Shown here: in pieces, positions 2,790 to 18,100 of the stretch
Layout: the number at the start of each line of letters is the position of its first letter
Numbering within the stretch: the stretch's first letter is position 1
Notes under the pieces: generated by a model
What the model was told of the DNA's origin: nothing
What the model saw: only the letters and a program-made list of their open reading frames with translations
Databases searched by the model: none
Made by a program: the position numbers and the translations under genes
Origin: an uncultured bacterium
GTDB taxonomy: Bacteria > Armatimonadota > Hebobacteria > CAIYQO01
Assembly: GCA_964573385.1 (NCBI GenBank)
Contig: CAZNLA010000001.1
Location: 1 to 51,434 of the forward strand
Direction: 5' to 3'
Length of the DNA stretch: 51,434 bases

Positions 2790-2948
2790 ATGAATAAATT
2801 ACCAGAAGATCACGCTAAAAAGGTTTGTAAGATGTTCCAGGGTGCAGAATCATGTGCTTTTCTTGTACATAATTTTGATGGAGATGAGTTCACCTTTGCT
2901 TGTGCTAAGGGTGACCCTCTTGAGTTTAATATTCTTAAAAAAAATTAG
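2790..2948 (+). CDS. Small hypothetical ORF (52 aa), probably the N-terminal part of a split Cys-rich protein
   Basis: ATG at 2790 is preceded by AAGGAG (2778-2783). It translates to MNKLPEDHAKKVCKMFQGAESCAFLVHNFDGDEFTFACAKGDPLEFNILKKN. The stop comes directly after an A8 tract (2937-2944). This ORF is below the 60-aa cutoff of the supplied track. Confidence 0.4.
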   Translation: MNKLPEDHAKKVCKMFQGAESCAFLVHNFDGDEFTFACAKGDPLEFNILKKN

Positions 2949-2958
2949 CGAAGGCACT

Positions 2959-3201
2959 ATGAAGTCGAAAGGCAATCATTGTAGTGGCTACGGTGCTGAT
3001 ACGGCTAAAGTTTGTACTACTATTTGTAAAAATTCTGGTTCTCTCTGTTCGTTTTGTAATAATTATGATGTTATGTCTTGTCGATATAACGTGAATTCAT
3101 CACTTAAGATTTCATGTATCCCGACATGTGAAAGACCGGGAGGGCCTTGTCCTGAAGGTGAAACATTTTATGAGAAGGCTGGAGCAAAGTTTGAAAAATA
3201 G
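2959..3201 (+). CDS. Cys-rich hypothetical protein (80 aa from ATG 2959; the frame is open from 2842)
   Basis: MKSKGNHCSGYGADTAKVCTTICKNSGSLCSFCNNYDVMSCRYNVNSSLKISCIPTCERPGGPCPEGETF... contains 11 Cys. The frame is +1 relative to ORF 2790-2948 and would fuse to it if the A8 tract lost one A. Confidence 0.35.
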   Translation: MKSKGNHCSGYGADTAKVCTTICKNSGSLCSFCNNYDVMSCRYNVNSSLKISCIPTCERPGGPCPEGETFYEKAGAKFEK

Positions 3202-3405: not shown

Positions 3406-4701
3406 ATGAAATACTTATTGCTTACAGTGGGTGGATCCTATCAACCGTTAGTGAGAGCTATTACCACATTAGAACCAGATCATGTCGTGTTTTTATGTTC
3501 AAAAGACACAACCGAAGGCAAAGGATCATACACACAAGTTACGGGTGCAGGACTGGTGTGTGGTGGCAGACCCGGGCAACCTGCAGACCAACCATGCATA
3601 CCTGCTCAAACTGGTTTAGCTCCAGACCAATATAACTTATCAATCTATGATATTGACCCCGATGATTTGAGTGATTGTTATAGTAAATGTGCAAATGTTA
3701 TACAACAGATACGCGCAAATGATTCACAGGCAAATATATACGCAGATTATACCGGCAGTACTAAATCAATGTCAGCAGGTTTGGCGTGTGCGGCATTAGA
3801 TGATGGTAAGATAAATATTATGTTGGTGACCGGTTTTCGACCAAACCTGGTTGCAGTACAGGATGGTTGCGAATTTCTTACTCGTGCTAAGGTTGAATCA
3901 GTTATTTTATTACGGATAAAAAAAGAGATAAACAGGTTATTAAAATCTTATGATTACGCATCAGCAGAGAAAGTATTGCGTGTTTACCTGTCTGACACAA
4001 CTAATAACATGGTAAGTGAATGGTTGGCTATTTGTAAGGCTTTTGATGCCTGGGATAGGTTCGACCATAAATCTGCCATAAAATTCCTGAATTCAACTAA
4101 AAAGTATCCCAAACATATAGCATTTCTTGGTAAATTAGAGGATATTATAACTGCTGATGCTGGTAAAGTTGAAGATAAAGATGCGGTAGAACCTAACCCG
4201 AAGATTGGATTTATGCTGGTTACAGATATTTTAGCGAATGCTCGCAGAAGGGCCAGTCAGGGACGATATGATGATGCCATAGGCCGACATTACAGAGCAG
4301 TTGAATTAATAGCGCAAACATTGTTATTGGTTAAGTGTGGGATAAAAACAAGTGAATGTCCTGTTGCTGAAATACCTGCGGAATGGATGTGGAAGATAGA
4401 CGAAGGGCAAACTGAGATTAAATTAGGATTAATGAAATCATGGGAATTAACGGCTTATAAATGTCCAGAAATTGCTGAACAATATAAATTATTTAAATCA
4501 CAATTATTAAGTGCTATTGAACGAAGAAATATGAGCCTTTTTGCACATGGTACAGTTCCAATAAATAAACAAGATTATGAAGATGATGTTAAAAACGGAA
4601 TGGCCGCATTTGCAGATATGATATTAAAAATAATAGCGAAAGATAAGAAAATTACTCCTCCGGATATGTTTTCTCCGGATTTTGTAACAGAATTAGAATG
4701 A
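3406..4701 (+). CDS. CARF-HEPN protein, Cas02710 (TIGR02710)-like type III CRISPR accessory effector
   Basis: 431-aa ORF. The N-terminus has the CARF-type start MKYLLLTVGGSYQP and DYTGSTKSMSAG (DxTGGTK-like). The C-terminus has ANARRRASQGRYDDAIGRHYRAVE and ERRNMSLFAHG (Rx4-6H HEPN-type motif, nt 4522-4551). The family is recalled from memory, not searched. Confidence 0.7.
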   Translation: MKYLLLTVGGSYQPLVRAITTLEPDHVVFLCSKDTTEGKGSYTQVTGAGLVCGGRPGQPADQPCIPAQTGLAPDQYNLSIYDIDPDDLSDCYSKCANVIQQIRANDSQANIYADYTGSTKSMSAGLACAALDDGKINIMLVTGFRPNLVAVQDGCEFLTRAKVESVILLRIKKEINRLLKSYDYASAEKVLRVYLSDTTNNMVSEWLAICKAFDAWDRFDHKSAIKFLNSTKKYPKHIAFLGKLEDIITADAGKVEDKDAVEPNPKIGFMLVTDILANARRRASQGRYDDAIGRHYRAVELIAQTLLLVKCGIKTSECPVAEIPAEWMWKIDEGQTEIKLGLMKSWELTAYKCPEIAEQYKLFKSQLLSAIERRNMSLFAHGTVPINKQDYEDDVKNGMAAFADMILKIIAKDKKITPPDMFSPDFVTELE

Positions 4702-4711
4702 CGGTTTACTT

Positions 4712-6220
4712 ATGACTATTGATAAAAAAACAGCTTTAATATTGTTTGCGTCAGAACAGGTGTGGCCAAATCTGCTAAGTATAGAGTGGTATCACCAAAA
4801 CGCTAATTTAACCAATGTGTATATATACCACACAAATGATGAACAACGATCGGCAATGCCTGCACAGAGAATAAAAAAGTTTTGCGAACTTCAATATCCT
4901 GACCTGCAATGCGTAATGCCCATAGATGGTATGCCAATGACACCGGATAAAGTTGTTGAGCAGGTATCAGCATGGTATGACGGAAATCAAGAGATATCGA
5001 ATTGGGTTATAAATGCTACTGGTGGTACAAAATTAATATTTGCCGGTGCGGTTAATACATTAATAATGCAAAATAGATTAAGAAAATGGGATTTTATTTA
5101 CTGTGAGTTGGGTGGATGGTATGGTTTGTCCCTTGATTTGTTGGGGTTGATAATCGCTGATAAAATGGATGGAAAATTTATCCCCTTTGATACACTAAAT
5201 AATGTGCCACTGCTTAATCTTATTAAAACACAATTTCAAAGTAAAGATGATTTGATATGGTATGCAGGGACAAAAGAGATATTTACATCAATCAGCATGG
5301 ATAATATGAGAACTATGCTGAGTCTGGGTGAATCGGAGAATTGGAATTGGAAAAAGCTATTTCAACAAATTGATGTTAACCCGGAAAATACATCAAGTGG
5401 TTTATTATTTGAACAATTCATTGCGGCTTCAATAATGTTGATAGGATTAGATAAAAGTCAAATCGACATAAATGTTGTTTCTAAAAGTAAAGAACATGGG
5501 AATGTGCAGCAAGAAATTGATGTTATAGTAAATAATAACGGCCGATTGATTATCTTTGATTGTAAATTAAAAGATGTAGATTCGGAAAGTGATGCTTTTA
5601 TAACACATATAAAAGCATCACATGATACCACGCAAATGTTAGGAGGATTAAATGCTCAATGTGTAATGATTCGTCCTAACAGAATTGTAAATGATGAAGA
5701 AAAGTTGATTGCATCCGCTTGGCGAGTGAAAATACTGGGACTAAGTGAGTGTAAAAACTTATTTACGGAAATTGGCAAAATAATTCAGATAAATCCACCG
5801 GAAGATATGCTTGCTGTGGAGCAACTTTATTTAAATGACTATAGCATAAAACCCATATTGGTTCCTATTAAAGAATCGGAACGACTTATGGCAGATGACC
5901 AACATATTCTTAGGATTAATTCTATACAGACTTATTTTCAACGAGTAAATTGTTGGGAAAATATAGGATGGGTATCAATAGAGGTCGGGTCAAATATTTG
6001 GATAATCAGAGATGTTTTCTGTGGGATTAAAGATTTTAACAGAACTGATAAAAGGATAGCTTTGGTAAATATGCTTACACAGATATGTGATAATTATCAA
6101 ATAACAATTAGTAAGACAGGAATTTCATGGTATGCTATTATTTTTATTAATAATGATGATAAAAGAAAAGCATTCAATATCTGGATAGATGACAGTGCAA
6201 CAAATCATAATTTGTTATAA
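4712..6220 (+). CDS. Can2/Card1-like CARF + PD-(D/E)xK nuclease with an extra C-terminal region
   Basis: 502-aa ORF. ALILFASEQVWPNLL and INATGGTKLIFAG are DUF1887/Card1-type CARF motifs. The nuclease motif is QQEIDVIV-x8-LIIFDCKLKD (nt 5513-5575). About 150 C-terminal aa carry no motif I recognise. Confidence 0.7.
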   Translation: MTIDKKTALILFASEQVWPNLLSIEWYHQNANLTNVYIYHTNDEQRSAMPAQRIKKFCELQYPDLQCVMPIDGMPMTPDKVVEQVSAWYDGNQEISNWVINATGGTKLIFAGAVNTLIMQNRLRKWDFIYCELGGWYGLSLDLLGLIIADKMDGKFIPFDTLNNVPLLNLIKTQFQSKDDLIWYAGTKEIFTSISMDNMRTMLSLGESENWNWKKLFQQIDVNPENTSSGLLFEQFIAASIMLIGLDKSQIDINVVSKSKEHGNVQQEIDVIVNNNGRLIIFDCKLKDVDSESDAFITHIKASHDTTQMLGGLNAQCVMIRPNRIVNDEEKLIASAWRVKILGLSECKNLFTEIGKIIQINPPEDMLAVEQLYLNDYSIKPILVPIKESERLMADDQHILRINSIQTYFQRVNCWENIGWVSIEVGSNIWIIRDVFCGIKDFNRTDKRIALVNMLTQICDNYQITISKTGISWYAIIFINNDDKRKAFNIWIDDSATNHNLL

Positions 6221-6255: not shown

Positions 6256-6588
6256 ATGTCGGAACCAGTTATAAAAATAACAGATGTAAAAGTGACCGAA
6301 ACGATTATGCCGGTCAAGCAGATTTCTTTTGAGATACCTGGTGGGAACACCACACCACAGGAGTTTGCTACCGCAGTTTCAAAAATGCCTGAGGTAAGTG
6401 GTAGAAATATAATACTTATAGAAGGCAGAGGGCCTATTTGGGGGTATGGTATGATAATGCATAAAGCACATGCTACCACCGCTATTGGCTGTTTTGATCC
6501 GCGCCTTGAAGGCTATGTAGTTGTGCAGTCGCATAATGACAGTATTGTTGTTGGTCAAATGCTAACGCTGATTTTGAAGGGTGAATAA
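6256..6588 (+). CDS. csx3: Csx3 (Crn3) ring nuclease
   Basis: 110-aa ORF with SD AAGGAG. IILIEGRGPIWGYGMIMHKAH...AIGCFDPRLEGYVVVQSH matches the Csx3 core pattern (GRGPiW ... DPRL.gyvVv.SH). Confidence 0.8.
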   Translation: MSEPVIKITDVKVTETIMPVKQISFEIPGGNTTPQEFATAVSKMPEVSGRNIILIEGRGPIWGYGMIMHKAHATTAIGCFDPRLEGYVVVQSHNDSIVVGQMLTLILKGE

Positions 6589-6590
6589 AG

Positions 6591-7538
6591 ATGTTAGATG
6601 TAATAAAAAGTAAATTTGGAAATCTGAAAAGCTTAATGAAGAAAAATAGAGACGCTATTTGCATAGTGTTTCTCGTTTTGGGCAACCTTACAATTGCCGA
6701 TTTTGTAACAGAAGGTTTAAAAAAGATATTTTCATTCCTTTTTGCTGAACAAAAGCCTACAGTATATTTTACTGTAGAAAATTTCTGGTTATATTTTACA
6801 ACAATTGTTTCAATATTCATATTTGTATGGTTCTCTTTTATGATTTATAAACTTAAAGAGAGTTTTACCAGAGTTAGAACATTGGAATTATATGAAAGTA
6901 GAAAACCGCACAAAGGATTAATAATATTATTGTCAACACCCACCATGGGTATTAATGTAACATTTAATACCGGTATTCAGTTGTGGAGTATTAATAATAA
7001 AGGTACATCTGTTGATTTTAATGGTCAAAGTTTAGACGATGATGTTGAAGCACTGGCGTTATCACCAATAGGTTGTAATTGGGAGATGTTAATGCGAGGA
7101 ATAAATGCAAATTTACCTAAATTGGAAAAAGTAATTTTGATTTGCTCTGCTGTTGGGAAGAAACCAAATGGGGACCCATTACCAGGATCGGTATCAAATT
7201 ATGAAGATGCGAAGCAAATAATAGACCATTACACCATGCCCAATGATGAGGTTTCTATTGTCACAAAATTTCCTGATGATATGAACGGGGTTGATTTTGA
7301 GGATTTGGATGCATTGACCCATGTGTTGCAAGATGCTATTGACTATCTTCATCATAAATGTCAAATACCTCACCGGGAAATACTTATTGATGTTACCGGA
7401 GGACAGAAAGTTACCAGTATTGCCGGTGCTTTGATTACTTTAAAGAATGAAGTGAAGATTCAGTATGTTCCAACAGGGAACACAAACACAATTAAGTTGT
7501 ATAACACTGTCATGGAAGACGCACCTGACATGGGATGA
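6591..7538 (+). CDS. Membrane-anchored CARF protein (Cam1-like architecture: 2 TM helices + CARF)
   Basis: 315-aa ORF that starts 3 nt after the csx3 stop. The TM segments are AICIVFLVLGNLTIADFV and FWLYFTTIVSIFIFVWFSFMIY. The CARF-like elements are HKGLIILLSTP, VILICSAVG and LIDVTGGQKVTSIAGAL (nt ~7386-7420). Confidence 0.6.
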   Translation: MLDVIKSKFGNLKSLMKKNRDAICIVFLVLGNLTIADFVTEGLKKIFSFLFAEQKPTVYFTVENFWLYFTTIVSIFIFVWFSFMIYKLKESFTRVRTLELYESRKPHKGLIILLSTPTMGINVTFNTGIQLWSINNKGTSVDFNGQSLDDDVEALALSPIGCNWEMLMRGINANLPKLEKVILICSAVGKKPNGDPLPGSVSNYEDAKQIIDHYTMPNDEVSIVTKFPDDMNGVDFEDLDALTHVLQDAIDYLHHKCQIPHREILIDVTGGQKVTSIAGALITLKNEVKIQYVPTGNTNTIKLYNTVMEDAPDMG

Positions 7539-7697
7539 TAAATTATAAAAAAAGAATATAAATTAGTTCTGAATATTATATTTGGTGCATTATTAGTCGC
7601 ATTTTTCCCTGCGGTATGGGGTGCGTTTTGCTATTATTTAATTGCATTACCATCGCGTGTTTCCATTAGCATACTAATTGTCGGTATTATAATTGGC

Positions 7698-8279
7698 ATG
7701 ATTGCAGATGGCTTGTTGCGACGTTTTATGCCGAGTTTTGAAGTTTGGGAGCATGAGTTGACTCATGCGCTGGTAGGTTTGCTGTTTGGCATAATACCTG
7801 TAAAAATAGTTGTAAAAAAAGGAGAAGGCGGAATAGTAAGGCATAAAATCTACACACCGGATTGTCTTTATCCACTGGCTATAGATTTTGTATCGCTTGC
7901 ACCATATGTCTTACCAACGATAACTTTTCTAATGGTGGTATTTCGTCCAATTATTCATAGAGATACTATATCATGCTACGATTTTTTTATTGGACTATCT
8001 TTTGGATATCATATTCTTAGCACAATTCGGGAGTTTAAAAGTAGTTGGACATTAAAGAAATTCCCGAGTGCAGATACGGGTGAATTAATAAATTCAGATA
8101 TTGCTAAAACAGGAATTATATTCTCTACCATATATATTTGTACTGTAACGTTAGCCATCCATGGTGTTATGCTTGCAATAATGATAAAAGGTTATACAGG
8201 AATTAAAGGATGGGCAATACATGTATGGGAACCGACAATAAAGTTACTTGCGTCTATTGCCTCAACATTAGTGCGGTAA
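7698..8279 (+). CDS. Polytopic membrane protein with an HExxH zincin motif (putative membrane metalloprotease)
   Basis: WEHELTHALVG (HELTH at nt 7752-7766) plus several hydrophobic helices. The frame is open back to 7542 and encodes two more hydrophobic helices, but there is no ATG/GTG/TTG there, so the true start is probably upstream and non-canonical. Confidence 0.6.
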   Translation: MIADGLLRRFMPSFEVWEHELTHALVGLLFGIIPVKIVVKKGEGGIVRHKIYTPDCLYPLAIDFVSLAPYVLPTITFLMVVFRPIIHRDTISCYDFFIGLSFGYHILSTIREFKSSWTLKKFPSADTGELINSDIAKTGIIFSTIYICTVTLAIHGVMLAIMIKGYTGIKGWAIHVWEPTIKLLASIASTLVR

Positions 8280-8590
8280 TCTTAAATCGAATTTATGCTG
8301 ATAATATTAGCACAGAGGTTTCTCGCATAATGGTAATCTGTTGAACTTGTCGAAGCGAGAGTTCTGTAACTTAAAGTATCTCATAATTTTTGATAAAAAA
8401 TTAAATTATTGAAACTAAGAACTGTTTTGTAAAACATTTGAGATATTAAATATATATTTTTTTCTTTATATATTTAAAAAAATATTATGATTCTAAATTA
8501 GTAGACATTTACAGTATTTCTTATGTATAATTCAATAGCGCAAGGATAAGTGTTATTTATATAAACTTTTATATAATATGGGACAAAATA

Positions 8591-11500
8591 ATGTTAAATC
8601 GGCATTGGAGCTTTAATGGTATAATATTTACCATCGTAATATTTTTTACGATGGTGTCTCCTGTTGTTTATGGCGGTGATTTCAAACTTACTGACCCCAA
8701 TCACTATATAATTCTTGTTGATGCCAGTGGTAGCACTGTTCAAAACCAGGTAATTAGATCAGCATATTACAGTGCCGCATCAAAGTTAGTTAAAAATTTA
8801 TTCGAAGATGGGTTTAAACAGGAAGATACTAATATTCCCCGTTTTAAAACAGGCCGTGATTATCTGACGATTTATAATTTTGGTATCGGAAATGGTGGTA
8901 CCAGCAATGCTTATCAACAGATAAAATATTTTTACGATTACTCTTTACAGTATTTACATCCTATTTGCGAGGCAAATAAGAATGTGTCTCAGGATTGGGT
9001 TAAGTCAGTAATTTTCCCGAAGAAAACTTACAACTACTCAATTTATTCATGGGCAAAACCATTAGGACTGGAACATGCGGGTCAAGCAGCACAGAATCTG
9101 CGTATTGCCCATACATACCTTATTGTATTGACAGACGCAAAGCCAAATGGCATTTCTTTAAGTGATGAAGTAATTGAAATTGAACGATTTTCCAATAAAA
9201 AATCACGTGATCAGGAACGTTCAGTGCGTCGTGAAATAGCAAACGGATATTTTTGGGGATTACAATCTGGTGTTGAAGGGCTGGCATATGAGAAGCGAAT
9301 TACAAATAAATTGTCAGGTAGTGCCTGTGACATCTTTATCGAAGGATTTGAGGTTTTTTCCCGTGAACGTCAGCAATATCGATCTTCAGCAAAAGCTTTT
9401 GAACCGTTATCTGCTGCTAATATTCATTGGGTCGAGGACCGTGATGAAGACCCGGTAATAGTTGTTTCTTTGCCAATTTCACCGGAATTTAATAATTGGC
9501 ATGGTAACCTTTCGTCTTTGCAATATTGTCTGCATATCGGATCTGATAATTATGAATGGAACCAGCAAAATGTAAAAAATAACAAGGTTAAAATAACTTT
9601 GAATGGGAAAGCGCCTAAAGGCGGGAGCCTGTTCCTGGACCTATTCTCCAGACGTCTGGAGTCGGATAATATTCTTGGAGAAAGTGCCGTTAATTATCAT
9701 TGGCGTAGTAACATTATACTTCCAGACCGACCCAGTCAAACAATTTGGAATAAGACACAAAGAGCGCTAATAGTTATTGGGTTTATTTTACTCGCTGTTA
9801 TCATAGCATTATTAGTATATTTCGGTGTGTTTTTTCCACATGCATCATTCCTTGTTAATTCATGTGGCAAAGCATTTACTTTGGAATACGGTAATAAATA
9901 TCCAAATTTATCAATATTGGCTCCCAGGCATACCGATGAAATTGTTTTAAAGGTAAAATTAATTCACCCCATTTTACAATGGTTATTTGGGTGGTTACGC
10001 CAGGAGTCTATACAGATAAAATCTACAGATGGTAAAATAATATGGGCCATTCAGGATATGCCTGAAATACTAAAACTGCCATATAATTATAATACTGCAC
10101 ATGCCCAGTGGCAACAATTGCCATCAAAAGAAATTAAAATAGTCATCATCCATAAAGTTTATGGTAAGGAGATAACCCGTATGATTGATGTTACTCGAAA
10201 TGAAGCTATTAATGCGCCGGTAAACAATGGACTACTTGACCATATAATCTCGTTAGACCTTGGTTCAGAATCTATTGCTGCCGCGTATTTCAATACTCAA
10301 CTAGGCGGTGCTCAGGTTATTAATTTACAGGATGTAGCAACAGATTATTATACAGGTAATTTGGTTTATTATTTAAATAACAATTTAAAATCAAATAGGA
10401 TGAAGACCAAGATACAACTAATGGATAATGTAGTACCTGTTAATATCCCGCATTCACATGCAGATATTCTGTTACAGAATATAGCAAATGATTGTTTGTT
10501 TAAATATTTTCAACAGGCAGGATATGGTGGAACAATAAAAAAATGGATGCCAAATCCAAAAGTACTTTTCATGCGAGGTGCCGATAAGAATTTCTTGCCA
10601 TTTGTCAAATCAACGACTCCTGACAGTTATGTGAAAATGCCTCCAGAGACTTTGATTTCACATCTTATAGTACAAATAGTTAATAATTTTGTTATCCCAG
10701 CCCTTTATAATCAGATGTTCAATAATAACAACAATACAATAGCTAATACTGTTTGTTATAATTCAATTCCTAAAGAATCAATCCATCTGGTTATTACAGT
10801 TCCCAATGTTTATAGTTGTATGCATGTTAAAAAAATAATTGATTTTGTTAAAGGCAGATTAGGTTTTGGGGAAGTTACGTCATTATACGAATCTGAAGCA
10901 GTTTCACATTATATTTTGAACTCTAAAACACCAGAGAAAATAGGGACAGGTTTTGGTGACGCAAAAAACCCTTATATCCTTACAATTGATGTCGGTAAAG
11001 GTACGACAGATTTGTCTCTTGGACAACGCAAACTTGCTAGTGATAATAGGCAATATGCTGAATTAGCCAGAACTGGTATCTCTAGCGGTGGTAGCAGGCT
11101 TGATTATATTATTGTTAATCACTTAGAGGAAGTAATTAAATCTGTTTTTAAAAAATATGGTAAAGATTTAGTCGATACAGATACACCGCGGATTAGTTTG
11201 TTACGTGAGTCTGGTGGTACAGAGGTTACTGAAGTAATTACTGTTTTAACAGAAGGTATTCCAAGTAGTGATGGTGGTTTATTACTTGATTTAAAACGTT
11301 CAATGGATGAATATTTTTGTATCAACAGAGATATACTTTCTATAGAGAAACACCGTGAATATGCATTGGAAATTGCTAAAATATATTTAAAGAGTATGGG
11401 ACTCAATAAATTTTTTGGTAGAAATATTTCAGTTGATAAATTTAAAAAAGCATTAGTTTTTCGCGAAATCCTAACACGTTCATTATTATATTGTATAAAC

Positions 11501-12811
11501 GATAAGATTTTATCGTTTGGGAACTTAAAAGATAGGATTGATATATTTAATGAATTTTTACTAAATCTACTAAATAAATCACAGAATGTTAAATTAAATT
11601 ATGATATTAATGATATGAATGTATTCATGTCAAATAACGCAGACTTTGTGAAAGCATGTGAATATTTGAAAAAGAGAGTTAATTTGATTGACAGTTTAAT
11701 AGATTTAGATATAGACAATACAAAAACTCAGATAAATGATGCATATAAAGCAAGTACAGATGAGATAAAGCCTGTAGATGAAATACATATTCAAACTTTC
11801 ATAACATCACTTACAAAATTAAAACAAATTGCACAAAGTTTTTCATGGCAAACAAGCACATACGGTAAATTGATTGATGGAATGCAAAATAACTTTATTT
11901 TTGAAAATATTAATGAATATAAAAAAATGATTTCACAGATAGATGAATTAAATGATGATACTACTTATGCTGTTTTAATAAGAAGAATATTAGACAGTAA
12001 TAAAAAAGTTTTTGAAAATCTAATACCAATATTTAATATATTAATAGCAAAGGATCATCATGTCTATTTTACTAAAACTATCAAATCATTTGATGATATG
12101 ATAATTTTATATGAGAAATTAGCGAAAATGAAGTTTAATTGTGCATTTTCTCCTGAAAGACAGGTGAAAAACAACTTTAAAGACTCATTGAAAAATTATA
12201 TTAATTGTTCTATAAATGATCAGAAAGATAATCTATTTACAATGTTAGAATTATCAACAGGTGGAAAATTTAACAATATGAAAGATAACTTATATGTTGT
12301 AGTAGCTGGTCAGGCTTCTCAATTTAAACCTGTCAGAAAAGCGATTAAAGATATACATGGAGGGGCGTTTTTTCTGGAAGGAGATGAATCTAAAGATGCG
12401 TGTTGTTTAGGAGCAGTTTACCATATTGTTAATATGAACACTCGTCCTAATGCCAATTATCTATTTGGTGAATATGGAGTATATGATACCCAGATTGGTC
12501 CTGGTAGATATAAAAGGATATCTACATTAAGTTTAAACTCTCATCCGCATCAGGCTGAGGTTACCTTTGATAATAGTGCAGGTCGTTCTGTTATATTTTC
12601 AACACGAATTACTCAAGGTGATGAAGCACCTGATATCGAGGATAATATGACAGCAGTCATTATGCCAGTATCAGGGAAAAGTTATAATTTTGAGTATGAT
12701 CCTAAAAATCTAAATATTATTGTAAATGGCAAAGTTTTAGATCCATGTGCGGTAGGAAATGTAGATAAGAAAATTTATGAAAACTTATGGCCAGAGCAAT
12801 TACGCAAATGA
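8591..12811 (+). CDS. Giant vWA - TM - Hsp70/actin-fold ATPase fusion protein
   Basis: 1406 aa. The N-terminal signal/anchor is IIFTIVIFFTMVSPVVYG. The vWA MIDAS-like motif is YIILVDASGST (nt ~8720). The TM segment is ALIVIGFILLAVIIALLVYFGVFF. Hsp70-type motifs are ISLDLGSESIAAAY (phosphate 1, nt ~10254), LVITVPNVYS...YESEAVSHY, LTIDVGKGTTDLS (phosphate 2, nt ~10982), SSGGSRLDYIIVNHL and VVVAGQASQFKPVRKAI (nt ~12298). A long Asn/Lys-rich helical insert is present. Confidence 0.65.
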   Translation: MLNRHWSFNGIIFTIVIFFTMVSPVVYGGDFKLTDPNHYIILVDASGSTVQNQVIRSAYYSAASKLVKNLFEDGFKQEDTNIPRFKTGRDYLTIYNFGIGNGGTSNAYQQIKYFYDYSLQYLHPICEANKNVSQDWVKSVIFPKKTYNYSIYSWAKPLGLEHAGQAAQNLRIAHTYLIVLTDAKPNGISLSDEVIEIERFSNKKSRDQERSVRREIANGYFWGLQSGVEGLAYEKRITNKLSGSACDIFIEGFEVFSRERQQYRSSAKAFEPLSAANIHWVEDRDEDPVIVVSLPISPEFNNWHGNLSSLQYCLHIGSDNYEWNQQNVKNNKVKITLNGKAPKGGSLFLDLFSRRLESDNILGESAVNYHWRSNIILPDRPSQTIWNKTQRALIVIGFILLAVIIALLVYFGVFFPHASFLVNSCGKAFTLEYGNKYPNLSILAPRHTDEIVLKVKLIHPILQWLFGWLRQESIQIKSTDGKIIWAIQDMPEILKLPYNYNTAHAQWQQLPSKEIKIVIIHKVYGKEITRMIDVTRNEAINAPVNNGLLDHIISLDLGSESIAAAYFNTQLGGAQVINLQDVATDYYTGNLVYYLNNNLKSNRMKTKIQLMDNVVPVNIPHSHADILLQNIANDCLFKYFQQAGYGGTIKKWMPNPKVLFMRGADKNFLPFVKSTTPDSYVKMPPETLISHLIVQIVNNFVIPALYNQMFNNNNNTIANTVCYNSIPKESIHLVITVPNVYSCMHVKKIIDFVKGRLGFGEVTSLYESEAVSHYILNSKTPEKIGTGFGDAKNPYILTIDVGKGTTDLSLGQRKLASDNRQYAELARTGISSGGSRLDYIIVNHLEEVIKSVFKKYGKDLVDTDTPRISLLRESGGTEVTEVITVLTEGIPSSDGGLLLDLKRSMDEYFCINRDILSIEKHREYALEIAKIYLKSMGLNKFFGRNISVDKFKKALVFREILTRSLLYCINDKILSFGNLKDRIDIFNEFLLNLLNKSQNVKLNYDINDMNVFMSNNADFVKACEYLKKRVNLIDSLIDLDIDNTKTQINDAYKASTDEIKPVDEIHIQTFITSLTKLKQIAQSFSWQTSTYGKLIDGMQNNFIFENINEYKKMISQIDELNDDTTYAVLIRRILDSNKKVFENLIPIFNILIAKDHHVYFTKTIKSFDDMIILYEKLAKMKFNCAFSPERQVKNNFKDSLKNYINCSINDQKDNLFTMLELSTGGKFNNMKDNLYVVVAGQASQFKPVRKAIKDIHGGAFFLEGDESKDACCLGAVYHIVNMNTRPNANYLFGEYGVYDTQIGPGRYKRISTLSLNSHPHQAEVTFDNSAGRSVIFSTRITQGDEAPDIEDNMTAVIMPVSGKSYNFEYDPKNLNIIVNGKVLDPCAVGNVDKKIYENLWPEQLRK

Positions 12812-12822
12812 GGGATATATAA

Positions 12823-15066
12823 ATGCGAAAATTAATAATTAATTTATTTACTATGAAATATTTTATAATCTGCCTGATTATTCATTGTGTATCTGTAGTA
12901 CTATCAGTTGCAGCAACCCAACCCAGGTTGATATCTGTTGTACCTGGCGTAGGTTCAGATTCGATTCCATATACAATTAATATTTATATTGCTGTTAAGA
13001 AAAGCAATACAGATATTACCAAAAAAAGTAATGTCGAATTATGGTCAAAAAATGATGATAAGAAATTAGAACCTGATAAAAATAATGATAATGGGTATGT
13101 TTACGATTATGCCCCAGAAAAATCTAAGAGTTCAACATCTAAGTTTAAACTGATTATAAATATGTTAGAACCGAATTCCATTGCCGATGTTAATATTAAA
13201 ATAGAACAAAAAGGTGAGTTTACATTATATGTTGATGGCATTCTTATAGACGAGAAAACAAATATTTGGAATATAAAATTTAAACAAGACTATGCTAATA
13301 AAATTGAAAATGAAATCGTAACAAATAATATAGGAACTATAAATACTGATGAATCAACCAAGCTTGACACAATGCCGATTGGATATGCCGTTATTATTTT
13401 AATTATTACTATGATAGTTTTTTTTAGTATAATATTTATACAACAGCAGAAAAATGAAAACCAACATGCTTTTATCAAGAAGATTGGTGAGATGTTATAT
13501 GATGAGATATCTATTTTTGAAAAATATGAAAAGAAAAAAAATAATATTTCTGAAGCAAATTCTTTAACAACATTGAATCTTCGATGCAAATTTAGGCACA
13601 ATAATATATGCAGCAATAACAACGTTGATTTATCATTTCTTTCAAAGATAGTTTCATGCCTAATTAATCCTGTTTCTGATAGTGAAGAAGCAGATTCTAA
13701 TAAAGAAATAAAATTTAATATTTTTAATAGAATTTTAAAAATATTAAATGTAACCAAATGTGATGATACGGAGCAGTTATCGTCATTATTCTTCCAGAAG
13801 CAAGATTCAACTAATAATACCACTACAGATTTTCTTAAATATTTATTAGAAACTGTCAAAAACGAATCCAATCTTTTAGATGAAAGTAATGAAGCCATTA
13901 AGCCTATTACAAATAATGAAGATATTAATCCTATAACTAATAATGAAGTAAAGACTACTGGTACACTTTTTCATAATTTAGATTTTAATAAACAAATTGA
14001 TGAACTTTTAATCATTTTAACAGGGCATCAATTATATAGCAATAGTTCCAAGTTGATATCAATAGGTCATATTACTGAAATATTAAAAAAATTAAAGGAA
14101 TTAACACCTGATTCTCCAAATGATAGAGTTAAACATAAATATGATTATTACCTAGAGAAATTACTTAAAAATAATGATATGCATACTATGATGCATTTTT
14201 TTGTGTTAGATGTAACTAAAAAATATAATTTAAATATTTTTGATAAGGATGAGTTAATACAAAAGATAGAAAAATCAATTCAGATAGAAAATGATTGGAT
14301 ATCATGTAATATTCTAATAAATAAAAATGTAAATTATAAAGATGTCACATCTATCAAAGAATTTTATAAGAAGGTTACGGTTGAAATAAATACATTAACT
14401 GCAAATTCAAAAAGATTTGAAGAAGAAAATGACGAATATAGAAAATTAATTTCAGAAGAAAAGATAAAAATACAATCGTTACAGGATAAGATTAAAGAAA
14501 GTGAAAATAAAACTCAAACTAACGATCAAAGATATGCAAAATTATATCTTACATATGAACAAATTAATGAAATAAATAATGAAAATAAAAAAATAAGTCA
14601 ATTAATTCAACATGCTTTAAATTTTAGTAGTAATATTAATAGTTATTATAAAAATGAATCAGTATTTTTCGCAGTTTATTATTTAATGTTTTTTAACATT
14701 GTAAACTTAAGTAAAATCATAAATGATATTGATTGGCCAAATAACAAATATGCAATGAAAGCAATTCCTGTGTTTAAATTTAATATAATTAAATTGATTG
14801 ATAGAAACTATGATGATAATAATCTTGATGAAATTGTCAAATCTATTTTGAAAACTACCCAATCTATAGGTTCCAGTTATGGTGCTCATACATGGGCTGA
14901 GGATGAGTTACTAGTTCCTCCGGGAACGAACAAAATGCCATATCATGATGACATTTGTAATGCAATGGAAATCATCAACAGTGAGACACGAAGACATCAT
15001 CACCCGTTGTTTCTTAATTTTAATTTAGAAATAGTAGACAACGACATATATATAGCCAATGCTTAA
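12823..15066 (+). CDS. Asn/Lys-rich single-pass membrane protein with a predicted coiled-coil cytoplasmic region
   Basis: 747 aa. Signal-like N-terminus FIICLIIHCVSVVLSVAA and TM segment IGYAVIILIITMIVFFSIIFI. There are heptad-like stretches such as RFEEENDEYRKLISEEKIKIQSLQDKIKESENK. It starts 11 nt after the previous stop. I recognise no family. Confidence 0.5.
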   Translation: MRKLIINLFTMKYFIICLIIHCVSVVLSVAATQPRLISVVPGVGSDSIPYTINIYIAVKKSNTDITKKSNVELWSKNDDKKLEPDKNNDNGYVYDYAPEKSKSSTSKFKLIINMLEPNSIADVNIKIEQKGEFTLYVDGILIDEKTNIWNIKFKQDYANKIENEIVTNNIGTINTDESTKLDTMPIGYAVIILIITMIVFFSIIFIQQQKNENQHAFIKKIGEMLYDEISIFEKYEKKKNNISEANSLTTLNLRCKFRHNNICSNNNVDLSFLSKIVSCLINPVSDSEEADSNKEIKFNIFNRILKILNVTKCDDTEQLSSLFFQKQDSTNNTTTDFLKYLLETVKNESNLLDESNEAIKPITNNEDINPITNNEVKTTGTLFHNLDFNKQIDELLIILTGHQLYSNSSKLISIGHITEILKKLKELTPDSPNDRVKHKYDYYLEKLLKNNDMHTMMHFFVLDVTKKYNLNIFDKDELIQKIEKSIQIENDWISCNILINKNVNYKDVTSIKEFYKKVTVEINTLTANSKRFEEENDEYRKLISEEKIKIQSLQDKIKESENKTQTNDQRYAKLYLTYEQINEINNENKKISQLIQHALNFSSNINSYYKNESVFFAVYYLMFFNIVNLSKIINDIDWPNNKYAMKAIPVFKFNIIKLIDRNYDDNNLDEIVKSILKTTQSIGSSYGAHTWAEDELLVPPGTNKMPYHDDICNAMEIINSETRRHHHPLFLNFNLEIVDNDIYIANA

Positions 15067-15121
15067 GAATCGGGATTAAATACAATTAATACTGGTGATG
15101 AAATGTCACAAGAGGAGCATC

Positions 15122-18100
15122 ATGAATAATTTTCTTTACTTTGTTAAACAATATTACTTACTTATAGTAGTTGTTTTAATTGCAGGAATTTGTATCAAAT
15201 TATTAGTAAGTTCGACAACTTTAGAAATAGTGATTGTTTGCATATTATCAATGATGATGTTAATTTATCTTGTTAAAAACGAGTGTGCTATAGATGTGAA
15301 GATGTTATATGCGTATATATTCTTTGTATTTATAGTTGGGTCATTATTGCTATATAATCATTTAGGTGGCTTTTCTGCTAATTCTCCATTAATTAATGAC
15401 CGTATAGAACAAAGGTTATCATTTTTAGGTTTTTATGCTAAAGACAATACTTTTACGATATCTAATGGAGAATCATCTAAACAAGACGCATTTAATATTA
15501 GTGGTATGCAACAAAAAACATCTGGTTTGTCAGAAATATCGCTTACACCTGATGTTAAAAATGGTGAGACATCATCATGGGATATCAATGCCAAACCTAT
15601 AGATTATTGGAAATATCCGTTACGAATAAATAATAAATGTATAAATATAAATAAAAATAATATTTTAAAGGACAATTCGGTAATATCTTTTCGTTTACCT
15701 GGGCGTAATGATGTTGCAAGGTTAGTATATAAGTCAGATAAGTGGCATGAAGAATTAAAATATTTTGATAACGAGAAATATATTACAACAATTTCATTAA
15801 GAAATATTTTTACACGATTTAAATTAAAAGATGCGATGTCATTGGGTAATTTGTTAAGTAGAGCAGAAAAACAGATGTTTACTGGTACATGGAAGAAAGA
15901 TGGAAAAGTACCATTACTTACACAAGAAGAATATGCACCCATCCTAAAATCTTTAATAGTCAGGATAAATAAAGGTGATGCAAATAGTAATCTAACATTA
16001 TTTCCACCGGATATAAGTGAAACCAATAATGTTCCGGAAATATTTATAGACAAAAAAAGTTATGATATGACAAATAGTTTATCATCATTTTACACTAAAA
16101 ATATTCCGGTATTATCTTCTAATCAGAATATGAAGTTGATATATGGCATAGATCAAAATAAAAGTTTTAGTATGACATTACCGTCTAAACTAGTTCGCAA
16201 CCCACAATATCCTGGTCAAAAGTTTCTTTATTATTTATTTTCTACCCCTATAAAGTATCCTTTACCACCGGATATTATAAATTCCTTTTTCATTTCAAAT
16301 ACAGAAAAAGGATTTGCGGTAGATGGTATTTTACTACCTGCTGAAAATCTGGTTGTTCCTATTTATGCAAGAGGAGATTTTGATAAAGAAAATAACCTGA
16401 TTATTAAAGATGGTCAAACAACTGCCCAATACATATTAAATGATAAGGTACTATTAGGCAAACCAAATCTTGGTTTAGTATTGTCCGCCGGTCGCACTGA
16501 ATTGCCATCTTTTCTTGGCATTTCACCGGGAATCCTGGCTATTATATTATTCGCAATCTCTAGTTTCTTATTTTGTGTTGCTATTTCTTTCCGCAATAAA
16601 ACAACGGACACAAAAACTTTATCAATAATAGTTTTATTATGGGGATTAACAGCAATCATACTTATATTTAGATTGATAATTGGTTACAGGGCAGCATTGC
16701 TTCCTCCATTTGATGCCTATGCATCAGAGCTGGGTCATTTTGAAAAATCATACACTTTAAGTCTGTGGACACTACTTTTTATACCATCTTTATTAGCAAT
16801 AATTACAGTTGTCAAAACTAATTTTATAGAAAAAATCTTAATTTCAATATCCGGATTGAAATTATTTTTACATAAGATTGCTTTTATTGAAAAAATATTA
16901 AAATGTTTTAACAGTATATATAAAGGACAAAACCCAGTTTATTATATGAGAGTACTAATAATTATTATTAGTATTGCTTTCATAGGGATTGTCTCTAAAA
17001 TAAATAACAATGAGTTTCTCTTTCTAGGACAAGCATCATTAATTTTGTATATTGCTATTGTGCTCTCGTTATTCTGGGTGATGGAGTTTATGTTAAATTC
17101 ACCTACTAAAATGCAATGGTTGTGGTTTTTATTAATAATAGTCGAAGTATGTATTTTTTGGGGTATAGTTGACCCCGGTGCGTTAGTAATTTATTCTTTA
17201 TCAATTATACCAGTAATATTTTTTATTATTCTTGCTAATATCAAAATAACTGCGTCTCGAAAAAATCCATACACATCAACTCGTTGGGCAATTGTCGCGG
17301 TAATATTTTTGTTTATTTTATTCGTTTCTTTACCAAAACTAATTGCGAGTTCAAACAATGAAAAATGGTATGGTAATACTGCTGTTTATTACAGATGCTG
17401 GTTGTTAGGTGATAACGTAAATGATTTATTAACATCACCTAAATATCAAGATATGATTACTAAAGAGAAAAATTTTACCATTTTATCACGAAATCGTCAG
17501 CAAATGTGGCAGATGTTATGTTATGCGTCTGCTGGCAGACATTGCGATACCAAATATGGTTCTGCCCCATTAGCCCGTCAGGGAATGGATTATAAAACAA
17601 CACTGGTCGATTCTGTATATTCTACTTTTATATTAAGTGAACATGGAGTATTAATAGGTTGGTGTTTATCGTTTGTCTTTATAGTATTAGCGTCTATTTT
17701 GGTTTATTCTGCATATAAATTATCGTGTGCAAGGAATATTAACATCCGAGCCAGGGCACCAATTTTATTGATGATAGCTGGTTATTTTCTGTTTAATTCT
17801 TTGTATATGGCTAGTGCTAATTTGAATATGGTTGTATTCACAGGTCAAAATATTCCATTTTTAGGTGTACGGTCATTAGGAGATTTGTTTCAGGCAGGAT
17901 TTTTACTGTTGTTATCAGCATTCTTAATTACTTATAAAATGGATAAGATGTTAATAAATCAAAATCAAAATCAATCTTATTATAAAAAAGCATGGAGCGG
18001 GATAGGTATTTTTGGTGTGATAGCATTTTTATGGTATTTGGGTATAGGGGTAGTGTTAATGAAATTACCTGATAATTATACTCAACCAAATAATATTTTT

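Follow-up and report, generated by a model that had tools for sequence, protein, structure and literature searches.

How is a membrane protein made when its reading frame runs for 52 codons before reaching a recognized start codon? This question is raised by a contig (CAZNLA010000001.1, 34% GC) in a metagenome-assembled genome (MAG; GCA_964573385.1) of an uncultured armatimonadotal bacterium, which comprises 822 contigs at 87% completeness and 40% GC. The whole stretch that was analyzed, positions 1–51434 of this contig, is called the window here. In it, a gene for a polytopic membrane protein with an HExxH motif, hereafter the zincin, directly follows the gene of a transmembrane CARF protein (TM-CARF), on the same strand and in the same frame. 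The two genes close an operon of accessory proteins related to cyclic oligoadenylate (cOA) signaling. The locus raises a second question, which is whether the sensor and the putative protease belong together. The features discussed are collected in Table 1.

The Leader upstream of ATG 7698

A first-pass annotation had described the TM-CARF gene as ending in TGA-TAA, followed by an open, start-less leader, and direct reading of the sequence confirms this layout. The TM-CARF open reading frame (ORF) spans 6591–7538 on the + strand (315 codons), and its last codons are ATG GGA TGA, with the stop at 7536–7538. A TAA at 7539–7541 follows at once in the same frame. Past this TAA, the frame reads ATT(7542) ATA(7545) AAA AAA GAA TAT AAA and continues to ATG 7698. 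The 52 codons of 7542–7697 contain no stop codon and no ATG, GTG, or TTG. The ORF listing opens the zincin gene at ATG 7698, and the frame closes at TAA 8277–8279. The junction also holds two details absent from the first-pass annotation, an ATG at 7535 and a run of seven adenines (A7).

Start-less leaders of this length are uncommon in the genome. Among the 3081 ORFs that extend over 200 or more codons from stop to stop, 32 (1.0%) have at least 52 such codons. This count supports the earlier argument that the open leader is unlikely to have arisen by chance, as does the homology of the leader to the N-termini of family members, which is the more decisive of the two for its coding status. In the family alignment, P23, G15, L18, G48, and G52 are conserved within the leader. 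Alignments with homologues open at residues 4–20 of the query, corresponding to residues 2–15 of the homologues themselves, and include both upstream helices. Relatives in 60 genomic loci carry an in-frame ATG directly preceding helix 1, for example MRFLLGLIALFIIPG. Among the zincin relatives compared, none starts at the equivalent of ATG 7698, and every one includes both helices. The hydrophobic upstream helices that had been proposed are thus real, and orthologues beginning at the equivalent of 7698, which would have spoken against them, were not found.

The predicted structure agrees with this assignment. An AlphaFold2 (AF2) model of the full-length zincin, computed from a 45-sequence alignment, has a predicted local distance difference test score (pLDDT) of 96.1 and a predicted template-modeling score (pTM) of 0.90. 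The leader forms two helices in the model, residues 2–39 and 42–62, with pLDDT values of 88–98. Met53, encoded by ATG 7698, falls in the middle of the second helix, so the 193-aa gene call truncates the fold. The 52 leader codons are genuine coding sequence and integral to the fold, and it is almost certain that the present 193-aa gene call is in error. The family requires these codons, so that the zincin will be truncated by any annotation pipeline that accepts only ATG, GTG, or TTG.

The most extreme start-less leader of the genome lies on another contig (C101, + strand), in an ORF that opens at about 8215. This ORF spans 577 codons from stop to stop, 372 of which precede the first ATG, GTG, or TTG.

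Proposed Initiation at a Near-Cognate Codon

Our favored explanation, to which we give slightly less than an even chance, is that the full-length zincin is made from the near-cognate codon ATT 7542 or ATA 7545, by way of a Shine–Dalgarno (SD)-like GGGA, re-initiation, or both. The zincin ORF is intact over its full length and belongs to a widespread family of polytopic HExxH proteins that stand alone and have helices 1 and 2 as part of their fold. On this contig it is the last gene of a cOA accessory operon that encodes a Csx1/Csm6 protein, a Card1/Can2-like protein, Csx3, and the Cam1-like TM-CARF, and no spacer separates it from the CARF stops. In the favored mechanism, initiation would occur at a low level at AUU 7542 (or AUA 7545). 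It would be aided by the GGGA located 6–9 nt upstream and/or by ribosomes that re-initiate 3 nt beyond the CARF UGA. An ATT placed 3 nt past this UGA has the ideal geometry for termination–reinitiation. We infer both the start codon and its coupling to CARF termination from the sequence.

One relative, P0015 (MIDAIRR...), has an N-terminus of exactly the length that the ATT start would give, and its Met1-Ile2 align with ATT 7542 and ATA 7545. A TGGGA is also located 7 nt before ATG 8591, the start of the operon downstream; the other genes of the window mostly have SD sequences of the AGGA type (AAGGAG or AGGA at 5–9 nt). The first-pass annotation had listed ATT, ATA, CTG 7569, and re-initiation coupled to the CARF gene as options. 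The two near-cognate codons and coupled re-initiation are the options that we favor. A start at CTG 7569 is unlikely, since the protein would then be missing its Lys-rich N-terminal tail, the counterpart of Arg and Lys residues in the homologues. There is precedent for such an arrangement in the infC and pcnB genes of Escherichia coli, which are initiated at AUU. As in these genes, the zincin would have a near-cognate codon where its relatives have AUG, with an SD-like element upstream; on the zincin side, this likeness is drawn from sequence alone.

Several points weigh against initiation at ATT or ATA. Bacteria rarely start translation at AUU or AUA, and the GGGA would be only a weak SD sequence. 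A rival start of equally simple logic is available in ATG 7535 and the A7 run. The nearest orthologue shares 48% identity, and there is no close orthologue of the junction in which conservation of the AUU could be assessed. In addition, the junction is found in the MAG contig alone, and the one further assembly in which the gene occurs has its break precisely at 7544/7545. Non-AUG starts and slips on A-runs are already known; their combination at this locus is unusual and is not conserved. The locus is a natural test case for whether a near-cognate start 3 nt after a stop, or a slip on a short A-run, can express a polytopic membrane protein.

Competing Explanations for the 5′ End

Translation might instead begin at ATG 7535, which overlaps the CARF stop, in a frame that reads ATG ATA AAT TAT AAA AAA AGA ATA TAA. 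A one-base correction within the A7 run, either by a +1 ribosomal slip of tRNA-Lys or by loss of one A through RNA polymerase slippage, would then give a protein beginning MINYKKEYKLV.... In a variant of this model, a recent A6-to-A7 insertion has inactivated the gene or made it phase-variable. All the elements are in place, namely the ATG, the run, and a +2 frame that stays open between them; the ATGA overlap is the usual layout of coupled genes, and homopolymers are mutational hot spots. From base composition, we estimate a probability of about 0.25 that an ATG and open frame would occur here by accident. We nevertheless consider a frameshift unlikely. Seven adenines make a short run for slippage to be efficient. 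A second assembly has the same A7, hence no polymorphism is seen, and genome-wide the frequency of frame breaks at runs of at least seven (0.4–0.6 per 1000 runs) equals that at runs of 4–6, so frame breaks are not enriched at homopolymers. The MINYKK N-terminus would be two residues longer than that of P0015, the best length match. A nearby A8 run (2937–2944), which might have offered a parallel, looks like a boundary between two ordinary genes, the second of which has an SD and an ATG of its own; neither gene has homologues. A different possibility is that the start was recently lost, through an ATG-to-ATT change or the rearrangement that brought the CARF cassette beside the gene, leaving a remnant that is silent or yields only a 193-aa product from ATG 7698, without helix 1 and half of helix 2. 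The full-length zincin indeed has no canonical start, gene callers picked ATG 7698 (P0001), and the CARF linkage is not conserved, suggesting recent juxtaposition. A promoter-like site with 10/12 matches is present at 7666–7693, although such sites are not enriched over shuffles. Decay of this kind is also improbable in our view, given that the frame has 245 codons with neither a stop nor a frameshift, that the invariant residues are intact, that Met53 lies inside a core helix of the AF2 model, and that no homologue begins at its equivalent.

The junction itself could also be an artifact, with the MAG contig mis-joined at 7544/7545 and the true 5′ end of the zincin, with a normal start, located elsewhere. 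The evidence that bears on this comes from a contig of an independent assembly, L109 (1–1321; ENA ERZ4201038 NODE_192694; coverage 2.4), which is identical to window 7545–8325 at 781 of 781 positions, the A7 run included. To the left of position 7545, L109 holds unrelated DNA. In the same assembly, the contig from the CRISPR side (L113) ends at 7093. The CARF–zincin junction is thus covered only by the MAG contig, because L109 begins to match at 7545 and L113 stops at 7093. The genomes of the same genus lack the zincin and its 1406-aa neighbor, and the contig has 34% GC versus 40% for the MAG. These observations would fit a mis-join, which we nonetheless judge to be quite improbable. The left part of L109 is viral and truncates a viral gene, hence L109 is the more likely chimera of the two. 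There is no zincin relative in IMG/VR, no compositional break is found at 7545, and the N-terminus of the zincin ORF has the normal length for its family.

One candidate for a native 5′ end of the zincin gene was that in L109 (TTG start, MTSLFINIHFSI...). It was rejected because the leftmost 539 nt of this contig turned out to be DNA of a giant virus. This segment contains an XRN helical domain (XRN_M, 4.5e-17) and consists of the 3′ end of an XRN-like gene and a spacer. It is 96% identical at the amino acid level and 93% identical at the nucleotide level to GVMAG contigs in IMG/VR (GVMAG-M-3300023184-29 for the nucleotide match). The viral homology reaches the junction, where a viral Nei-like gene is cut. 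L109 is most simply explained as a chimeric contig with a fortuitous TTG “start”; the join would be technical or would stem from a very recent recombination between virus and bacterium. Its breakpoint lies 3 nt into the zincin ORF, a coincidence that we estimate at about 3% given how the contig was found.

Genomes of the same genus offered a comparison for the MAG contig. Neither of two such genomes has an orthologue of the zincin, the 1406-aa neighbor, or a 953-aa protein, and same-genus genomes likewise lack the XRN fragment. An orthologous context from which to draw island boundaries was therefore not found in them. The MAG contig may represent an accessory island or other accessory DNA, or it may be mis-binned.

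A sequencing error in the homopolymers was also considered and rejected. The A7 run is identical in the independent ENA assembly, the A8 run is identical in three assemblies, and frame breaks show no enrichment at runs. The A8 run (window 2790–3201) separates ORFs of 52 and 80 aa, both Cys-rich, that would be fused by one A fewer. The run is the same in the window, L113, and L114; the second ORF has a GAAGG SD and starts at ATG 2959, and neither ORF has homologues among 5.8 billion proteins. This pair was rejected as a second case of frameshifting on account of the missing homologues and of the separate SD and ATG.

The CARF–Zincin Adjacency

The first-pass annotation had proposed that the two genes descend from a CARF–zincin fusion that was later split, or that they encode a functional membrane pair. 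Fusions were sought in both families. No CARF domain was found in the best 150 of 226 zincin relatives, the set in which architecture was examined. Four long zincin relatives (P0019, P0078, P0090, and P0110; 307–396 aa) were rejected as CARF fusions because they have no CARF match in PADLOC, and their N-terminal parts resemble YdjM or have no assignment. Among 22 relatives of the TM-CARF protein (249–390 aa), none is fused to a zincin, and all share the C-terminus of the window protein, ending within a few residues of it.

Genomic neighborhoods gave the same picture. Inspection of the surroundings of zincin homologues at 55 loci from genomes and 38 from metagenomes, and on 6 contigs, turned up no CARF gene. 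Searches of the genome and metagenome zincin loci with the four cOA proteins of the window (tblastn) returned nothing, and none of 76 proteins encoded next to zincins contains a CARF domain by Pfam and PADLOC. In the opposite direction, no zincin was found beside TM-CARF homologues, whose neighbors are Csx3 and Cmr genes. Given the lack of fusions and of conserved linkage, the CARF–zincin adjacency is specific to this contig, and is neither a split fusion nor a conserved module. The fusion proposal finds no counterpart in either family, and the proposed pairing did not recur in a co-occurrence check of about 100 zincin loci, an outcome that the first-pass annotation had itself named as refuting.

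These results bear directly on the idea that the zincin is a membrane protease under cOA control that is dedicated to the TM-CARF, and that it derives from a fused ancestor or is made as a readthrough fusion. The spacing is zero, strand and frame are common, and the zincin is the last gene of the cOA operon; both proteins are membrane-embedded in the AF2 models. Set against this are the lack of fusions among the relatives examined in both families and of co-occurrence in the roughly 100 loci. Readthrough is very unlikely given two tandem stops, and the characterized membrane CARF effectors work without a partner (PMC10808066; 10.1101/2025.11.13.688252). This reading is largely refuted as regards conservation and fusion, and we consider it very unlikely overall.

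The first-pass annotation drew an analogy with CARF-regulated proteases. Known cOA-regulated proteases are CalpL (Lon-SAVED) and SAVED-CHAT (reviewed in PMC9704534), in which second-messenger sensing is tied to proteolysis. In those systems, sensor and protease are fused or are conserved partners, whereas here they are encoded by separate genes whose pairing is not conserved. A more local version of the idea is that the zincin was recruited on this contig as a TM-CARF partner, is an intramembrane metalloprotease made at a low level by stop-coupled AUU initiation, and processes or removes the cOA-gated effector for its activation or reset. We regard this as a long shot. If true, the recruited zincin would mirror, on the protein level, the Csx3 ring nuclease whose gene lies immediately 5′ of TM-CARF. 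The notion of a cOA-controlled membrane protease has no backing from comparative genomics, and our expectations for it are low.

The Zincin Family

A word-indexed search retrieved 11 zincin relatives of 208–274 aa. An exhaustive HMMER search of 1.84 billion representatives expanded this number to 226, with 14 at E < 1e-30. The relatives are mostly standalone proteins of about 200–255 aa. The window zincin matches PF13398 (Peptidase_M50B-like) with an E-value of 0.0014 and 18.8 bits, below the cut-off of 26; relatives P0002–P0007, P0019, and P0078 reach the cut-off.

The zincin ORF contains no internal stop or frameshift over its 245 codons. All 10 family-invariant residues (E70, H71, E72, T74, H75, P121, Y122, P125, D186, and G191) are intact. 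In the AF2 model, H71ExxH75 lies within a helix spanning residues 64–81, and the motif is invariant in the 45 aligned sequences, in which D186 and E164, candidates for the third zinc ligand, are invariant or nearly so. The protein resembles PF13398 and site-2-protease-type proteins in having its HExxH in a membrane helix, and in having a second conserved acidic motif (D186...G191) together with an APYxLPT motif. It differs from them in scoring under the curated cut-off and in matching no solved structure by sequence or fold. A Foldseek search of the PDB with the AF2 model gave a best E-value of 0.36 and template-modeling scores of at most 0.29, with no protease among the matches, and hmmsearch of the PDB with the family profile found nothing, S2P/RseP-type entries included. 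A literature search yielded no relevant paper on any family member. The HExxH family has a confidently predicted membrane fold with no solved relative, and it comprises 226 representative clusters with no known characterized member.

The neighbors of zincin homologues are heterogeneous and mostly housekeeping genes, with conservation of neighbors only within lineages. The 76 neighboring proteins that were scanned with Pfam and PADLOC include metallo-beta-lactamase-fold proteins, ABC transporters, and chorismate synthase, among others. Large neighbors are a NACHT-TPR protein, a CWB2 protein, and a histidine kinase, which are unrelated to each other and to the giant operon of the window. A conserved link between the zincin and this giant cell-wall-type operon (8591–20545) was considered and dropped, as none of the zincin loci gave a tblastn match to the three giant proteins. 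At one locus (L005, 2394–8825), the zincin homologue P0006 is encoded beside ZorA/ZorB-like (MotA/MotB) genes and a gene for a DUF350 protein. This is possibly a defense-island context; it is not repeated in the other loci.

The TM-CARF Protein and the cOA Operon

The 315-aa TM-CARF protein matches two PADLOC models, “TM+CARF” and “CARF, 2 TMs”. Its AF2 model has long hydrophobic N-terminal helices at residues 20–50 and 62–92, followed by an alpha/beta domain. The best PDB match of the model in Foldseek is the CARF domain of Cam1 with bound cA4 (8t65_B, prob 1.00, TMt 0.62), and the other top matches are Csx1, Cami1, and Csa3. The conserved motif IDVTGGQKxxSIAGA is present. Like Cam1 (PDB 8t65/8t66) and Cap1, the protein would combine N-terminal membrane helices with a cytoplasmic CARF domain, and its gene stands beside CRISPR/type III accessory genes. 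Its layout with two transmembrane helices resembles that of Cap1. Its sequence similarity to Cam1 and Cap1 is below detection, and phmmer against the PDB found nothing. Its CARF region also has about 90 extra residues compared to the PADLOC TM+CARF profile. From sequence and fold, we predict that the TM-CARF is a divergent new member of the Cam1/Cap1 kind. Cam1 (PMC10808066) and Cap1 (bioRxiv 10.1101/2025.11.13.688252) act alone as cOA-gated pores. By analogy, the TM-CARF would be expected to work alone as a cOA-gated membrane effector.

Homologues of the TM-CARF protein occur in Cmr (type III-B) loci, where their immediate neighbor is a Csx3 gene and no zincin is present. In two of these loci (L105, 5001–6112; L107, 5001–6036), the TM-CARF homologue is followed by a 79-aa Csx3 gene after a gap of 4–6 nt. 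The order in the window is reversed, with Csx3 preceding TM-CARF by a gap of 2 nt. TM-CARF and Csx3 look like a conserved pair of effector and ring nuclease.

Table 1. Coordinates of the features at and around the TM-CARF–zincin junction (window numbering)
Feature	Position	Strand	Basis or remark
Csx1/Csm6 (CARF-HEPN)	3406–4701		Pfam, PADLOC
Card1/Can2-like (CARF-PD-DExK)	4712–6220		Pfam, PADLOC
Csx3, 110 aa, immediately 5′ of the TM-CARF gene	6256–6588	+	Pfam Cas_csx3 7.8e-22; PADLOC Csx3 1.4e-22
TM-CARF effector, 315 aa, Cam1-like	6591–7538	+	PADLOC “TM+CARF” 4.8e-32; CARF8 CARF_TM 6.8e-29
SD-like GGGA within the last CARF codons (putative)	7532–7535	+	6 nt before ATT 7542, 9 nt before ATA 7545; predicted from sequence
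ATG overlapping the CARF stop (ATGA), out of frame; candidate start under the frameshift model	7535–7537	+	Sequence
Tandem stops TGA TAA closing the TM-CARF ORF	7536–7541	+	Sequence
Full-length HExxH membrane protein ORF, Peptidase_M50B-like	7542–8279	+	245 codons + stop; homologues, weak PF13398 match, AF2
ATT and ATA, opening two codons of the frame; favored near-cognate starts	7542–7547	+	Sequence; aligned with Met1-Ile2 of P0015
Stretch 100% identical to L109	7545–8325	+	Identity begins exactly at 7545
A7 homopolymer run	7547–7553	+	Sequence; same A7 in the independent ENA contig L109
First canonical start, ATG = Met53	7698–7700	+	193-aa gene call (P0001) begins here; middle of predicted helix 2
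HExxH motif, H71 E72 L73 T74 H75 of the long form	7752–7766	+	Sequence; invariant in 45 family members

Beyond the zincin, a promoter-like TAGACA-18-TATAAT, strong at 11/12 matches, is located at 8502–8531, in the 311-nt gap that follows the gene. Given its position, the giant operon of three genes that opens at 8591 may be transcribed apart from the cOA operon. The genes of the window include Csx1, Card1-like, and Csx3, with no Cas10 among them. The best match to a Cas10-Cmr2 palm domain in the MAG (E 1.2e-10) is found at 1585–2022 of contig C698 (L115), in a 459-aa open frame on a contig of 2.3 kb. This candidate may be the Cas10 that the cOA operon lacks.

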